This document shows, one piece after another, positions 2,933 to 13,292 of a stretch of 19,695 bases of DNA. The first letter of the stretch is position 1; every line of letters starts with the position of its first letter. A model generated the notes under the pieces. It made no database searches. It was not told where the DNA came from and saw only the letters and a list, made by a program, of their open reading frames with translations. Origin of the DNA: a virus (lineage: Duplodnaviria; Heunggongvirae; Uroviricota; Caudoviricetes); the IMG/VR virus record IMGVR_UViG_2700989272_000006, positions 1 through 19,695 of that record, one strand, 5' to 3'. The position numbers and the translations under genes are program-made.

Positions 2933-3985
2933 TTATTTCCCCACCAGCTCGTTTATCTCTTTCACTGTCTGGTTAAACCGCTCTGACTCAAGCTCAACAC
3001 CTAAGGCCCGACGCCCCAGCGCCATTGCTGCTTTTATTGTGGAACCGGATCCCATAAAAAAATCAGCAACCAGATCACCAGGTCGACTACTGGCATTGAT
3101 TATTTGCCTGAGCATATCCGCCGGTTTCTCACACGGATGTTTACCCGGGTAGAACTGAACGGGTTTATGCATCCAGACATCGGTATAAGGCACGGAGACT
3201 GATACGGAGAAATAGCGCCGGAGAGATTTAAACTCATCCAGCAATTCAGAATATTTGCGATTCAGTGAATCATAAGATGCCACCAGCTGGTGGTGTGGTT
3301 GTTCCAGTTGTTGTTCCTGAAACTTCTCTGCCGCTATACGGGAAAACAGTGCCTGTAACTTCCGATAGTCAGCCTCATTCGGCAACTGCCACTGACTGGC
3401 ACCAAACCAGTGGGAAACCATATTTTTCTTACCTGTGGCTTCGGCAATTTGTTTTGCCGTTATACCCAGTTCGGCACGAGCATCCCTGAAATACGATATC
3501 AGCGGTGCCATTATGTGCTGTTTGAGTTCCCTTTCTTTTGCCGCATAGCCGTCACTTTTGCCGCGATATGGCCCCTGGTAATGTTCAGCAAACAGAACGC
3601 GCTCTGTGGCAGGAAAATATGCGCGCAGACTTTCTTTATTACACCCATTCCAACGTCCGGACGGCTTCGCCCAGATGATATGGTTAAGCACGTTGAAACG
3701 TTCACGCATCATGATCTCAATATCAGATGCCAGGCGATGCCCACAGAACAGGTAAAGGCTTCCGGCAGGTTTTAACACCCGCCAGAACTGGGCCAGACAG
3801 TGGTCCAGCCACTTAAGGTAATCTTCGTCCCCTTTCCACTGATTGTCCCAGCCGTTGGGTTTCACCTTGAAGTACGGCGGATCGGTAACAATCAGGTCAA
3901 TGGAATCATCAGGCAGGGACTGAATAAAATGCAGGCAATCAGCGTTGATTAAATCAGCACTGTTTATTTTTACAGTATTTTTCAT
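2933..3985 (-). CDS. DNA methyltransferase, beta-class amino-MTase (N6-adenine or N4-cytosine)
   Basis: N-terminal catalytic motif IV (IVTDPPYF) and C-terminal AdoMet-binding motif I (DFFMGSGST) in the circularly permuted beta-class order; 350 aa; no cognate restriction enzyme recognised adjacent. Confidence 0.85.
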
Positions 3986-8236: not shown

Positions 8237-8886
8237 GCCGCCATCTCCCTGACCAGTTTTTCTGCCTGCTGGCGAACCTGCGCCAGAAAGGCCTCACCAC
8301 ATGCCTCAAGTTCATCGCGCCCGATGTAGCTGATTGCCGGTCCCTTCCAGGTCTTGTCGAAAACAGCAATAGCACCAGCGAAGAAAGCGCCTGTCGGCAC
8401 CTGCTTCTCATCCTTCGGGATAAACCAGGCAGGCAGTTCAAAACCAATACGCCCGCGAATAAAAGCAATATGATCTGCATCTTCCGGCCACCACACTTCG
8501 CTGGTGGCAGCTTTGATCAGGAAAACATAGCGCCCGCCTTTATCACGCATGGCACTGGCATGCTTCATGATGTAACGCATGCCGGTGATGTATTGCCCCT
8601 CATGCTGACTGGCGCGGCTGTATGGGGGATTACCAAAGGCAGCACCTTTAAGCTCCGCAAGGCGTTCTGACCAGTCATGCGCCAGCGCGTTGTCTTCCGC
8701 CGTGTAATACGCAGCACATTTGGCGTTATCACCGTCAGTGAACAGATCCAGAACAAACGGGCCAAACAGGGTGTTAATTCCCCAGAAAATGTTGTCCGGC
8801 GTGCGCCACTGATCGCCCACTTCCTTCAGTTCATGGGCTGGTTTGTTCCGCAGTTCCGCCAGCGCCTGGCAATATTTATTACTCAT
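8233..8886 (-). CDS. Phage Dam-type DNA N6-adenine methyltransferase
   Basis: NPPY catalytic motif (FGNPPYS) in a phage N-6-adenine-MTase-like context; ATG at 8886 in a TAATG overlap with the upstream gene; ATGA overlap with the downstream gene. Confidence 0.8.
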   Translation of the reverse strand: MSNKYCQALAELRNKPAHELKEVGDQWRTPDNIFWGINTLFGPFVLDLFTDGDNAKCAAYYTAEDNALAHDWSERLAELKGAAFGNPPYSRASQHEGQYITGMRYIMKHASAMRDKGGRYVFLIKAATSEVWWPEDADHIAFIRGRIGFELPAWFIPKDEKQVPTGAFFAGAIAVFDKTWKGPAISYIGRDELEACGEAFLAQVRQQAEKLVREMAA

Positions 8887-9380
8887 TAAGCCCCCACGTA
8901 ATTCCCTGAGAGATACCACTCTTCACCTGATGCAGCCCGCTTACTGCTTTTCCGTAAACACCGTTCACGACGCGCCAGAAAATTGTTTCGTTCTGGCTGG
9001 GAGTGGCTTTCACGGAATGCCGCCATCCACACCGTTGCAGCACGACGGTATAAGCCCCTCGACTCCAGTTCTTCAGCCTGGCGGGTCAGGCACAAAATCA
9101 CCCGGGGGTCGTTAGTGCCGACATAGAACTTGCGCACAGGTCTGGTTTCACGAACTGGTTGTGGTTCCGGCTCCTGCGCTCTCTCAGTCAGGCGCGAGAA
9201 ATGTCTGCGTGTATCTCCTTCACAACGGTGAGCCACACGCCCACTCTGACGTAACTTGCTTGCTGACTGCAGAACGCGCTGCCGTGAGTAACCTGCAAAA
9301 GCATCCGCAATGTCTCCGGAAGTACAGCCCGGATGGGCTTCAATGAATTTCTGAACTTCATTCAAAATACTCATGCTCAC
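8886..9380 (-). CDS. wHTH-PerC-like protein (C-terminal PerC-family motif)
   Basis: C-terminal segment AEELESRGLYRRAATVWMAAF...ARRERCLR resembles the PerC/Pch signature (LExxGLWRRAAxRW) as I remember it; N-terminal 90 aa look like a winged helix. Start GTG 9380 (GTGA overlap with O-like stop) or ATG 9374. Confidence 0.45.
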   Translation of the reverse strand: MSMSILNEVQKFIEAHPGCTSGDIADAFAGYSRQRVLQSASKLRQSGRVAHRCEGDTRRHFSRLTERAQEPEPQPVRETRPVRKFYVGTNDPRVILCLTRQAEELESRGLYRRAATVWMAAFRESHSQPERNNFLARRERCLRKSSKRAASGEEWYLSGNYVGA

Positions 9381-10369
9381 CCCCTGAATCCTGCCGGGAT
9401 CTGGCTGTAGTCCACGTTGTCGTAACTGGATTTGAAATATGGGTCTTCGCGTTTTTCTGTGTATGTGCTGACGGACGGCGATAAGCGCAGGGAAAGCTCA
9501 TCCCATTTTTCCCGCAGCTTCGACGGGCTGAGCACGTTACGGCACCAGAACGGATCGCGGCTGACGCGGCTGTACATCTCGCAGATTTGTTTGTGAGTAC
9601 GACCATCCTGCACACACATCAGGCGAATTTCGTTTGCCCAGGCTGTCCAGTTCGGTTCTTTGGGACGAACCACCTCGCCGTCACATTCGGCGGCCTGCTC
9701 GTACAGGGCGATGATTTTTTTCCAGAGCCACTGTGCGCAGGTCAAATCATCCTGCGTTCCCCACTGGCGCTTTTTAGGGCTGAATACAACCGCATCAGGA
9801 TGGCGAGTTAAAAACTCCTGTTCAGCCGTTTGCGTGTCCGGTTGCGAAGCGTCCGGACGAGAAGAGGTTTTATTCTCTGTAGTAATCTCTGTTGTATTCT
9901 CTGTAAGATCATTGGGCCATTTTGACCCGATGACAGCGTGTCGTTTTGAACCAATGGATCGTGTCATTTTGCGCCCATCCATCAGGTCACTTTGACCCGA
10001 TGGAGAAGTGCATTTTGACCTGATGGATTCGTTCACTTTGACCTCTTCTAAAAGCTCACTTTCATAGTTGATCGTGTAGAAGTTGGTCATGTCACGCTTC
10101 GATTTATTGAGTTGCTCGCGACGCAAAACCCCAAGTGATTTCAGGCTTGCAAATGTGCGTTTCAGAGTGGACTCTGACCAGAACGGAAACTGCTCCAGCC
10201 ACTGTTCTGTCGTGTTATAAACCCAGCGAATTCCGCCATGCTCAGTGCCTGAATTCGTTTCATTCAGCCAGTAATGAAGCTGCTGCAACACAATTGCCTC
10301 ATTCAGACCAATACGGCATGCAAGATCACGATTTATCACAATGGGCTGGGATGTCATTAACAGGCTCAT
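9377..10369 (-). CDS. Replication initiator (lambda O-like; iteron-containing gene)
   Basis: 330-aa ORF containing an internal array of six direct repeats plus 12-bp repeats encoding a Thr/Glu/Asn-rich linker (TENTTEITTENKT), the hallmark of lambdoid O genes that carry ori; N-terminal domain is HTH-like. The C-terminal domain family is not confidently assigned. Confidence 0.7.
   Translation of the reverse strand: MSLLMTSQPIVINRDLACRIGLNEAIVLQQLHYWLNETNSGTEHGGIRWVYNTTEQWLEQFPFWSESTLKRTFASLKSLGVLRREQLNKSKRDMTNFYTINYESELLEEVKVNESIRSKCTSPSGQSDLMDGRKMTRSIGSKRHAVIGSKWPNDLTENTTEITTENKTSSRPDASQPDTQTAEQEFLTRHPDAVVFSPKKRQWGTQDDLTCAQWLWKKIIALYEQAAECDGEVVRPKEPNWTAWANEIRLMCVQDGRTHKQICEMYSRVSRDPFWCRNVLSPSKLREKWDELSLRLSPSVSTYTEKREDPYFKSSYDNVDYSQIPAGFRG
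9872..9907. repeat. Three tandem 12-bp repeats (TCTCTGT core) flanking the iteron array
   Basis: ctctgt cores at 9875, 9887 and 9899; adjacent to the iterons, analogous to the repeat/AT-rich region next to lambda ori; encodes the TEN/TEI/TEN linker. Confidence 0.55.
9918..10045. repeat. Origin-like iteron array: six direct repeats (consensus approx CAYTTTGACCYGATGG) at 23-bp spacing
   Basis: Repeat starts at 9918, 9941, 9965, 9988, 10011, 10034 (cattttgacccgatg / tcgttttgaaccaatgg / cattttgcgcccatcc / cactttgacccgatgg / cattttgacctgatgg / cactttgacctc), all inside the O-like gene. Confidence 0.75.
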
Positions 10370-10590
10370 GCCGCACCTCCGAGATGCTTCATGTTTTTTC
10401 CGGAGCGAAAGGCTATAAGCGGCATACTGACGCGGTAATTACGGCCCAGCGGTTCACAAATCACCTTCTGACATTCACGGTCAACCAGGCTAACACGTAG
10501 AACATGCCCTGCAGGCGTGGTGTACCACTGACCGGGGCGAGGACAACGGAAAGTCTGATTGGTAAATCGTTTGAAAATATTCCGGATCAT
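10366..10590 (-). CDS. Hypothetical protein (74 aa), translationally coupled within the replication operon
   Basis: ATG at 10590 overlaps the Rha-gene TGA stop (ATGA), and its own stop overlaps the O-like ATG (ATGA); no recognisable domain. Confidence 0.5.
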   Translation of the reverse strand: MIRNIFKRFTNQTFRCPRPGQWYTTPAGHVLRVSLVDRECQKVICEPLGRNYRVSMPLIAFRSGKNMKHLGGAA

Positions 10591-11735
10591 TTGCGCCCCC
10601 TTACCTCTGAAGAGTTCAGCGACGAATGAATAAGACGGGCAAGAAATGCCGCATCGTTAATTCGGTCATACAGACTTACAGCCAGAGGTGATTCAGCTTT
10701 TTCCAGCATGGGATAAAGCTGCTGCAACCAGACCTGATGAATTGATGAAATGTAGGAATAGAGAACGCTGGCGTTATGTGCAACGTCGCTCGGTACAGCG
10801 GGCTTTGAAAGCTGTTTCTCCATCTGGTTAAAGGCATTGATGTATGCCTCTTTGAACTGGGCAGCACGTTTACCCGTGAAACCCATAGCAAGAAACGCAA
10901 AGCCGTCGCGGGTTATTTGATAGCAAGGTAGTTTGCGGCCTGTGCAATCGGTGTAATCACTCACCGAAAAATTGCGGGCAGTGAATGATGCGGAACATTC
11001 AAGCGTGCGGATCTTTTTCAGTACATCGTCATGACGTTTGGAGAAGAAGTTGGCAACAGCCAGGGATGAAGTAACAGCCTGACCATCAACGATGGCAATT
11101 TCAGGTTGAGTGAGGGTTGGGATCGTAGCCATGATGGCAGTCTCCGATAACAGTGAATTACCTTCACCACCGGAAACGCCAATTTCGCTGGTGGTGAACT
11201 GAACGGGGTTGGCGTAACCGGCGTTATCGGAAACCGGCGCACCTTTCGGTGCCCCCGTCCAGCCCACCATAATTTGGGTGTGCACAGACGCAGACGATAA
11301 AAAAGACGCTGGCGCGTCATATATCGCCGATAACATTTCCAGGACGCCAATCCCGACACCCGCTTTATAAGGTGCCTGAACAGTGTAACGTCCCGGAATG
11401 GCAGAATCAATGTGCTGGTGGTCCTTCACACTCAACAAAATCACGCCTGAATTTCCACAAAGGACTAAAGCACTCATGCGGGTAGTCTTTGCGAAGATAG
11501 ATAACGCGCTGTGTTTCTGGCTCCCAACGAATAACATGGACATAAAGCCCTCTTCCGTCACGAAACCAGCGGTTAAGTTCCTGCACAACTCGCCCCCCAC
11601 AGTCAGGTAAAGTTCTCTGTGGTTACTTACAGCCAGGTGATTTGGTAATCTGCATTCATGCCGTAACAACAGGTGTTCAGCGACGCTGACCACCAGCTGT
11701 TGCGACAAACGGTTATTTGCCGTTAAACTGTTCAT
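10587..11735 (-). CDS. Rha-domain phage regulatory protein with about 200-aa N-terminal extension of unknown function
   Basis: Residues about 205-300 (VTSSLAVANFFSKRHDDVLKKIRTLECS...YQITRDGFAFLAMGFTGKRAAQFKEAYINAF) match the Rha/ORF6-type pattern; ATG at 11735 with GGAGAAA SD and ATGA overlap with the upstream stop support the long form. The N-terminal half has atypical composition. Confidence 0.6.
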   Translation of the reverse strand: MNSLTANNRLSQQLVVSVAEHLLLRHECRLPNHLAVSNHRELYLTVGGELCRNLTAGFVTEEGFMSMLFVGSQKHSALSIFAKTTRMSALVLCGNSGVILLSVKDHQHIDSAIPGRYTVQAPYKAGVGIGVLEMLSAIYDAPASFLSSASVHTQIMVGWTGAPKGAPVSDNAGYANPVQFTTSEIGVSGGEGNSLLSETAIMATIPTLTQPEIAIVDGQAVTSSLAVANFFSKRHDDVLKKIRTLECSASFTARNFSVSDYTDCTGRKLPCYQITRDGFAFLAMGFTGKRAAQFKEAYINAFNQMEKQLSKPAVPSDVAHNASVLYSYISSIHQVWLQQLYPMLEKAESPLAVSLYDRINDAAFLARLIHSSLNSSEVRGRK

Positions 11736-12617: not shown

Positions 12618-13292
12618 ATGAAAACAGTCCATGACATCCGGCGGTCTAACGCCAGAAAACTGAGAGATGGTGTTGGCGGGAATTCTTCCTTTGCCACCAT
12701 GATTGATCGCGAGCCAACCCAGACCAGCAGGTTTATGGGAGATGGTGCTACTAAAAATATCGGTGACAGCATGGCACGGCACATCGAAAAATGTTTCGAC
12801 CTGCCTGTCGGATGGCTTGATCAAGAACACCAGACAACAAACATCACAAAAAAACCTGATGTTTCAATTACTAACAAACAAATAACGTTAGTCCCTGTCA
12901 TATCATGGGTACAGGCCGGAGCATGGAAAGAAGTTGGCTATTCTGAGGTTGATTTGAGCACAGCAGAAACTTATCCCTGCCCTGTACCCTGTGGCGAAAT
13001 GACTTATATCTTGCGGGTGATTGGTGATTCAATGATTGATGAGTACCGCCCGGGAGACATGATTTTTGTTGATCCTGAAGTCCCTGCCTGCCACGGTGAC
13101 GACGTTATTGCATTGATGCACGATACAGGCGAAACCACCTTCAAGCGGTTGATAGAAGATGGAACACAGCGTTACCTCAAAGCATTAAACCCAAACTGGC
13201 CTGAACCTTACATTAAGATCAACGGTAATTGCTCTATAATTGGTACAGTGATTTTCTCAGGAAAACCAAGAAGATACAAAATAAAGGCCTAA
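12618..13292 (+). CDS. cI: CI-like prophage repressor with C-terminal S24 (LexA-like) autopeptidase domain
   Basis: C-terminal domain with Ser/Lys dyad context (VIGDSM ... TFKRL) and Ala-Gly cleavage-site-like motif (VISWVQAGAW); N-terminal 70 aa HTH-like; divergent from cro with operators between. An in-frame TGA at 12567-12569 rules out an upstream extension. Confidence 0.85.
   Translation: MKTVHDIRRSNARKLRDGVGGNSSFATMIDREPTQTSRFMGDGATKNIGDSMARHIEKCFDLPVGWLDQEHQTTNITKKPDVSITNKQITLVPVISWVQAGAWKEVGYSEVDLSTAETYPCPVPCGEMTYILRVIGDSMIDEYRPGDMIFVDPEVPACHGDDVIALMHDTGETTFKRLIEDGTQRYLKALNPNWPEPYIKINGNCSIIGTVIFSGKPRRYKIKA

Follow-up and report, generated by a model that had tools for sequence, protein, structure and literature searches.

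The window analysed here is a 19,695-nt stretch of DNA, the IMG/VR virus record IMGVR_UViG_2700989272_000006 (Caudoviricetes), and it is the early region of a lambda-like (lambdoid) prophage of E. coli. On its minus strand, the open reading frame (ORF) 9377-10369 forms an intact gene of 330 codons for a replication initiator of 330 amino acids (aa), with an N-terminal domain (N-domain), a linker and a C-terminal domain (C-domain). Three kinds of DNA element follow one another in the linker-coding part of this gene: six direct repeats or iterons, three AT-rich 12-bp tandem repeats (12-mers) and a GC-rich dyad. All of the repeats lie inside this part, and we consider it very probable that they constitute the vegetative replication origin of the prophage, carried within the gene of its own initiator.

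The six iterons cover positions 9915-10049 (gene nt 321-455), between the parts encoding the N- and C-domains. On the plus strand, a 16-mer starts at 9918, 9942, 9965, 9988, 10011 and 10034, with spacings of 24, 23, 23, 23 and 23 bp. A previous reading of this DNA from its sequence only had described six iterons with a 15-17-bp unit and a strict 23-bp periodicity. The six repeats are there, but the period is not strict given the first spacing of 24 bp, the start that had been placed at 9941 was off by one, and the 16-mer, although real, is only part of the unit, which reads CCATCR + GGTCA-AAA-TGACC on the coding (minus) strand. The core of the unit is an imperfect 13-bp palindrome, and it is because of this palindromic core that a 13-nt inverted repeat (9977-9989 / 10016-10028) arises from iteron c and its flanks. 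In gene direction, the units are iteron a (10031-10049, AGAAGA GGTCAAAGTGAAC, with a degenerate 5' flank), iteron b (10008-10026, CCATCA GGTCAAAATGCAC), iteron c (9985-10003, CCATCG GGTCAAAGTGACC, whose core at 9985-9997 is a perfect GGTCA-N3-TGACC palindrome), iteron d (9962-9980, GGATGG GCGCAAAATGACA, degenerate here), iteron e (9939-9957, CCATTG GTTCAAAACGACA) and iteron f (9915-9933, TCATCG GGTCAAAATGGCC), 24 bp away from iteron e.

Searching the window for the pattern CAYTTTGACCYGATGG with up to three mismatches gave five matches, all of them within the cluster, versus 0.58 expected, and five matches were obtained in none of 200 shuffles. Copies 3 (9965) and 6 (10034) are degenerate, beyond the limit of three mismatches; at the position of copy 3 (iteron d), diverged relatives have a good GGTCAAAATG copy. 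The pattern search revealed no second iteron cluster anywhere in the 19.7-kb window, and TTTGACC alone was not enriched in the window (6 found vs 3.4 expected). The number of iterons was constant in 44 distinct relatives. An isolated and inverted partial copy of the iteron (GGATGATTTGACCTGC on the coding strand) is located at 9731-9746, some 170 bp from iteron f, with the inverted TTTGACC at 9740-9746; since it overlaps the codons for QDDLTCA, a conserved motif of the C-domain, it is probably a coincidence.

Regarding the 12-mers, repeat finders detected three copies of TATTCTCTGTAG at 9871-9906, and the 12-mers occupy gene nt 466-501. This tandem array is found at 9869-9906 on the minus strand (coding strand ACAGAGAATACA ACAGAGATTACT ACAGAGAATAAA), has a GC content of 31% and is our proposed DNA unwinding element. 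The sequence-only reading had seen three 12-bp repeats right after the iterons: the repeats are real, but on the plus strand they precede the iterons; with the gene on the minus strand, the order given in that reading holds in gene direction alone. No 36-bp segment of the gene is less stable than the array, whose free energy (dG) is -40.3 compared to a window mean of -49.0 (standard deviation 3.9). This minimum (9867-9902) ranks at the 98th percentile of instability when all 36-bp segments of the window are considered. The 12-mers are in frame and encode TENTTEITTENK. Among relatives, we found 53 distinct arrays of two to five units with the consensus ACAGAGAWTACW, likewise after the iterons, and five units in the IMG/VR relative L073. 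Other IMG/VR relatives presented a variant of the unit (L071), a 12-bp deletion just past the array (L038) or a 1-nt deletion within iteron d that would shift the frame (L059).

Directly after the 12-mers lies the third element, which was absent from the list of the sequence-only reading and belongs with the other two: a GC-rich (71%) dyad at 9836-9859 on the minus strand (gene nt 511-534), with the sequence GTCCGG..GC...GC..CCGGAC. As single-stranded DNA (ssDNA), it gives a hairpin of -6.8 kcal/mol (z -2.2). An inverted repeat with 10-bp arms and a 3-nt spacer (GTCNGGTTGC nnn GCAACCNGAC) is kept in 28 distinct relatives, in which 86.8% of the cells are paired, compared to at most 35% in controls with a slid partner column. 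Four pairs are altered on both sides, with examples such as GGTTGC/GCAACC, GGTTTC/GAAACC and GGCTCA/TGAGCC, and the covariation score was reached by none of 500 shuffles; as these relatives are kin sequences, this covariation is supportive and not conclusive. According to these compensatory substitutions, it is pairing or symmetry that is conserved, not sequence identity. At the dyad site, relatives from Proteus, Edwardsiella and Scandinavium have a near-copy of the palindrome of lambda (TTCGTCAGA-GAAT-TCTGGCGAA).

The protein encoded around these elements belongs to the PHROGs family 'replication initiation O-like' (phrog_391, 1e-101). Its C-terminal domain, of lambda-O type, comprises aa ~183-295 (nt ~9485-9823), and BLASTP aligned aa 147-294 with aa 135-270 of lambda O at 33% identity (E 1e-26). 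The linker that carries the putative origin extends over aa ~107-180, and the N-terminal winged-helix domain over aa 1-~105 (nt 10055-10369). No Pfam or NCBIfam model matched the initiator, and a PDB sequence search returned nothing. Unlike that of lambda O, its N-domain is not Phage_rep_O (PF04492), a model that the window protein failed to match even at E<=10 and that lambda O matched at 5.7e-36 in the same test. An AlphaFold2 model of the N-domain, built with 84 diverse relatives, gave a confidently predicted winged helix, with a pLDDT of 84.8 and a pTM of 0.76. Foldseek retrieved only generic winged-helix matches for this model; its predicted fold is a winged helix like those of RepA_N and of the N-terminal domain (NTD) of DnaD, and the best structural match is a plasmid RepA_N initiator, a likeness that holds at the fold level only. 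Given the fold of the N-domain and the homology of the C-domain, the protein reads as a chimera between a RepA_N/DnaD-like origin-binding fold and a lambda-O C-domain and, by analogy, the N-domain is presumably the part that binds the iterons.

To compare the conservation of these repeats with that of the surrounding coding sequence, we measured identity at third codon positions between the window and 18 relatives, namely IMG/VR loci and phage HannyBb, that are 77-85% identical to it in nucleotides. This identity was 0.58 for the coding sequence upstream, rose to 0.93 for the 10-nt cores of the iterons and reached 0.97 for the 12-mers; at the non-core positions of the iteron region, identity was 0.75-0.80 and flat over codon positions. 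As 23 bp do not make up whole codons, the six iteron cores are read in three frames and yield unrelated peptides (VKV, RSKC, GQSD, RKM, GSKR and GSKW). For the 12-mers we analysed codon usage. Arrays selected by their DNA pattern would make such a test circular, so we redefined them by their peptide (TExT repeats) and compared 40 distinct arrays with the rest of the same genes. Within the arrays, Glu was encoded by GAG in 99% of cases (44% elsewhere), Thr by ACC or ACG in 1% (53% elsewhere), Ile by ATT in 95% (46% elsewhere) and Asn by AAT in 88% (48% elsewhere). Besides, in six lineages (a Hydrogenimonas metagenome-assembled genome or MAG, Staphylococcus caprae, Paenalcaligenes, Limosilactobacillus, Fructilactobacillus and Cellulosilyticum) the first 12-mer unit is found at an 11-nt spacing and hence in another reading frame, and in Paenalcaligenes (L218) unit 3 is shifted too. 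These units encode RDY, RDF or KDY in place of TET and still retain the motif CARAGAnT. The 12-mer is therefore conserved as DNA, beyond mere AT-richness. Altogether, these patterns show that the repeats are DNA elements under selection and not peptide repeats.

The repeats are also linked to the N-domain. Shigella phage SfII, along with many others, has the same C-domain: from about aa 171 onward its protein is near-identical to that of the window, and the DNA identity of this half amounts to 97%. The N-domain of these phages differs, being of the HTH_36 type, and 15-bp tandem repeats (TGACCCGTCAAAATC) occupy the same site. Window-type and SfII-type genes are ~97% identical from the dyad on, that is, after the AT-rich part, while their N-domains and repeats are unrelated. 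As read from the aligned genes, the N-domain and the repeats were replaced jointly in SfII. The mosaic breakpoint maps to 9836-9866 in the window and to 3434-3497 in SfII (L003). In Klebsiella phage Kp4884-3 and Pantoea phage AH07, the window-type N-domain, iterons and 12-mers are joined to another C-domain, not of the lambda-O type; the AH07 record carries the remark 'conserved phage c-terminus'.

This layout extends to more distant relatives. In phages of Klebsiella, Pantoea, Staphylococcus and Acinetobacter, homologs with 35-60% identity all show a 22-23-bp array directly after the N-domain, and Pseudomonas phage AF has just the 12-mers and one iteron-like copy. We then scanned genomes with an N-domain alignment, which gave 80 loci from more than 25 genera, and determined for gene nt 301-470 of each the period with the strongest self-match. 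This period was 22-24 nt in 61 of the 80 loci, when about 3/32 would be expected if all periods were equally likely. A lack of conservation in related initiator genes is what the sequence-only reading had named as speaking against its proposal, and these 61 relatives do have an array of that period after the N-domain. Most also have ACAGAGAWTAC 12-mers, conserved at the DNA level even in differing reading frames. The iteron core differs by lineage and the copies within one array share the same variant (concerted change): GGTCAAAATGAC in E. coli, Klebsiella and Citrobacter, GGGCAAATTGC in Pantoea and Pseudomonas, GTGCAAAATGCAC in the Hydrogenimonas MAG, GGATCAAAATGATCC in Limosilactobacillus and GGACAAAATGRCC in Staphylococcus. 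A branch of Bacillus/Neobacillus and relatives (L216, L219-L223, L226-L235, L237, L239, L242-L244 and L250) mostly showed no clear 22-24-bp period and no CARAGAnT 12-mers, with partial signs of the pattern in a few loci, e.g. L221, L222 and L229; the origin of this branch may be elsewhere or of a different design.

At the protein level, the N-domain profile retrieved 12,936 representatives of 50%-identity clusters at E<=1e-10, and none of the 84 family members scanned reached a Pfam gathering score. The top-scoring representatives (P0241-P0270) are 400-880 aa long and present two separate stretches matching the profile, which suggests that some family members carry two copies of the N-domain or are fusions. 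Many database proteins of the family are truncated to 100-195 aa, which roughly equals the N-domain and repeat region combined; breaks of assemblies or gene calls within the repeats may be the reason. We also considered whether residues of the predicted recognition helix (KRTF vs KRAL) track the half-site (GGTCA vs GGGCA). The trend is suggestive, confounded by phylogeny and contradicted by one locus (L249), and we did not use it.

To contextualize this anatomy, we compared it with known origins. The origin of lambda, formed by four iterons and a 38-bp AT-rich part inside O (PMC3349717), is likewise placed between the N- and C-domains of its initiator. Comparison with lambdoid ori regions, which the sequence-only reading had proposed as a check, bore out its assignment: in gene direction, both origins have iterons (nt 349-433 of O in lambda, 321-455 in the window), an AT-rich stretch (~434-474 and 466-501) and a palindrome (475-496 and 511-534). 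Lambda iterons are also dyad-symmetric, with a central A-tract and a spacing of about two helical turns, and the C-domain of lambda O, its P-interacting part, is the one homologous to that of the window protein. The two systems differ in the sequence of the iterons, which is unrelated (GGTCAAAATGACC in the window and TCCCTCAAAACGAGGGA in lambda), in the AT-rich part, which in the window consists of three sequence-conserved 12-mers, and in the lack of a gene for a P-type helicase loader after the window initiator. Six iterons instead of the four of lambda had been presented as a peculiarity of this locus; the count is right, but it is no departure from known lambdoid origins, given that six are also present in the Stx phages 933W and P27, where four of them are bound well and plasmid replication requires the extra two (PMC7466680). 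In general terms, the locus presents what is expected of an iteron origin: at least three helically phased direct repeats that are conserved as DNA and specific to the initiator, next to an easily melted element.

The RepA_N plasmid initiators of Gram-positive bacteria (pSK41/pTZ2162 RepA; PDB 4PTA, 4PQL and 5KBJ) share with the window protein the DnaD-NTD-like winged-helix fold of their NTD, at the fold level, and also have their origin iterons in the central part of the initiator gene. In sequence, the identity is 9%, and there was no Pfam RepA_N match in the window protein or in any of 84 family members. Unlike these systems, the window protein comes from a phage and not from a plasmid, and its C-terminal domain is of the lambda-O type. 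As to the 12-mers, the closest parallels are the 13-mers of oriC (three) and RK2 oriV (four), which, once melted, are bound in single-stranded form by DnaA and TrfA, respectively (PMC4980987). The window similarly has three tandem AT-rich repeats adjoining repeats of the initiator-binding type, conserved in sequence and not just in composition. In contrast to the 13-mers, its unit has 12 nt, its consensus ACAGAGAWTAC is unrelated to GATCTnTTnTTTT, it is within coding sequence and its reader is putative.

Another point of comparison are the 'O-only' modules, reported for phage LLS and for 34 of 314 Enterobacterales lambdoid phages in a paper whose relevant passages also give mEp460_4F5 as the closest relative of the LLS CI and Cro proteins (PMC12315714). 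From xis to the lysis genes, no ORF of the window encodes a P protein, a DnaC-like or DnaB-like protein, a helicase, a loader or a primase. The initiator is the sole replication gene of the window, which makes it an 'O-only' module: as in LLS, there is just one O homolog, and the region from cII to Q has neither a helicase nor a loader gene. After the initiator comes a gene (8886-9380) for a PerC-like protein with a weakly Ren-like or MarR-like N-terminal part, which is not a loader. The passages on 'O-only' phages in PMC12315714 do not describe an origin, iterons or a non-lambda N-domain. Our literature search found no description of the origin of this initiator family, an absence that is no proof that none exists, and searching full texts for the 12-mer and for its peptide gave only unrelated papers.

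By analogy with these systems, initiation could proceed as follows. Dimers of the N-domain would bind the six dyad iterons (GGTCA-AAA-TGACC) and form a nucleoprotein complex resembling the O-some of lambda; given the 23-bp spacing of about two helical turns, the iterons are on one face of the helix. The stress exerted by the complex, probably aided by transcription from the early rightward promoter, would open the AT-rich ACAGAGAWTAC 12-mers, acting as unwinding element, and the GC-rich dyad would bound the bubble. Since their sequence is conserved far beyond AT-richness, the 12-mers are probably read in a sequence-specific manner, and the reader could be the initiator on ssDNA or a host factor, resembling what occurs at the 13-mers of oriC and RK2 oriV. 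The lambda-O-type C-domain would then recruit the host helicase and, as no phage loader is encoded, recruitment would go through host DnaC-DnaB or another host route.

The idea of an iteron origin within the initiator gene, already put forward in the sequence-only reading, is supported by the phrog_391 match, the homology with the C-domain of lambda O, the position between domains, the selection at the DNA level and the swap in SfII. One could argue, however, that the repeats are binding sites for the initiator or another protein with a mainly regulatory role (such as titrating or autoregulating the initiator, copy control of the handcuffing type or keeping out related phages), and that initiation takes place elsewhere. 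Plasmid iterons also serve copy control. Lambda iterons cloned in a plasmid block the replication of rep-lambda phages (PMC3349717). We nonetheless regard a mainly regulatory role as improbable, because the tripartite layout corresponds to the functional lambda ori element by element, the window has no other iteron cluster and, across phyla, this layout accompanies the N-domain. A different proposal would make the 12-mers and the dyad a 'linker' at a module boundary, kept for recombination of N- and C-domain modules among mosaic lambdoid phages and with no part in replication. It would account for window-type and SfII-type genes becoming identical exactly at the dyad, and for the same N-domain, iterons, 12-mers and dyad being joined to unrelated C-domains, lambda-O here and another one in Klebsiella and Pantoea phages. 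But recent exchange cannot explain the 12-mers found in Staphylococcus, Limosilactobacillus and Cellulosilyticum phages or prophages and in the Hydrogenimonas MAG, whose N-domains are 45-55% identical, and a recombination linker would not need compensatory substitutions in the dyad, so we deem this proposal very unlikely. Being part of an origin and serving as a recombination junction are in any case compatible roles.

The last alternative to a replication origin is that the repeats have no function as DNA, being a by-product of a low-complexity protein linker (TENT-TEIT-TENK), or a minisatellite or CRISPR-like array. The 12-bp repeats are indeed in frame, encoding TENTTEITTENK, and their copy number of 2-5 among relatives resembles that of slippage-prone minisatellites. 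A peptide origin is hardly credible in view of a 23-bp period read in three frames with unrelated peptides, of synonymous sites frozen in the cores and 12-mers and free in the flanks, and of out-of-frame 12-mer units that keep the DNA motif and lose the peptide. The sequence-only reading had warned that the repeats might be mistaken for a CRISPR-like or minisatellite array, and rightly so, as their anatomy fits neither. A CRISPR array was discarded with repeats of 16-19 bp and gaps of 4-7 bp inside an ORF, and with no Cas-like protein among the window proteins scanned; a minisatellite, with the repeats in an intact ORF of 330 codons and an iteron number that does not vary in the 44 distinct relatives.

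Several observations weigh against the assignment of a replication origin. Two of the six iterons are degenerate in the window copy, and the layout is not universal in the family, with the Bacillus/Neobacillus branch mostly lacking the pattern of 23-bp repeats and 12-mers. The conservation statistics rest on related sequences, and their counts are not independent events. No gene for a helicase or a helicase loader was found in the window. In its passages on lambdoid phages with an O homolog alone, the 2025 paper describes them as unstudied and their replication as not understood (PMC12315714), and our literature search retrieved no experimental work on the element or its family.

The design of this putative origin is the textbook one for iteron origins; what differs from lambda is the N-domain family, the sequence of the iterons, the sequence-conserved 12-mers and the missing loader. 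Judging from the loci and genomes compared, the initiator family is very common and barely annotated, and its origin layout is conserved from E. coli to Staphylococcus phages. The closest phage record is mEp460_4F5, with 98.5% identity over the initiator gene. Window positions 9800-10369, comprising the N-domain and the origin DNA, were found with at least 80% coverage in 1764 of 5426 complete E. coli genomes from RefSeq, at up to six places per genome, where the only PGAP/RefSeq label of the gene is 'hypothetical protein'; strains AR_0085 and PMV-1 are two examples with 100% identity across this segment. Our results place a putative origin in a prophage type that is common in E. coli, and a clonable fragment of 230 bp offers a handle on the replication of 'O-only' lambdoid phages. 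The 12-mer could mark the origins of this initiator family by sequence and, being found across phyla within coding DNA, could be a general phage origin signal.

A broader hypothesis, towards which we remain slightly sceptical, is that the window is one member of a large and undescribed cross-phylum cassette of initiator and origin, with a near-universal, sequence-specific 12-mer signal for unwinding or loading. The evidence allows for a cassette composed of a RepA_N/DnaD-like winged helix, three to six dyad iterons (CAAAATG core, 22-24 bp), two to five ACAGAGAWTAC 12-mers and a dyad, present in phages of Gammaproteobacteria, Campylobacterota, Desulfuromonadota and Firmicutes, with interchangeable C-terminal domains and partners. 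If so, the 12-mer would be read as ssDNA by the part of the initiator that is conserved, or else by a host replication protein that is itself conserved, and this signal would let 'O-only' phages recruit the host helicase without a loader of their own.

Finally, we examined the rest of the window. GC skew around the initiator gene was uninformative because it is confounded by gene orientation. The gene order begins with xis and the leftward early genes, followed by a cI-like repressor gene (12618-13292, plus strand), cro-like and cII-like (CP76) genes, a regulator of the Rha/Ash type, a 74-aa protein and the 330-aa initiator. Downstream of it come PerC-like, Dam, LexA-like and RusA genes, and then a Q-like antiterminator, a methyltransferase, a holin, an endolysin and Rz. 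The 74-aa gene upstream of the initiator is annotated as DUF4222. Rfam detected a C4 antisense RNA (RF01695, 82.8 bits) at 11187-11274 and the Hfq-binding small RNA isrK (RF01394, 61.5 bits) at 11299-11375, both on the minus strand and both within a mechanically called ORF of 382 aa (10587-11735) whose product has Ash and Rha domains. The 11187-11375 region looks like a c4/antirepressor module of the P1 immI type inserted between cII and the initiator gene, and the true start of the Ash/Rha protein is probably downstream of both RNAs.

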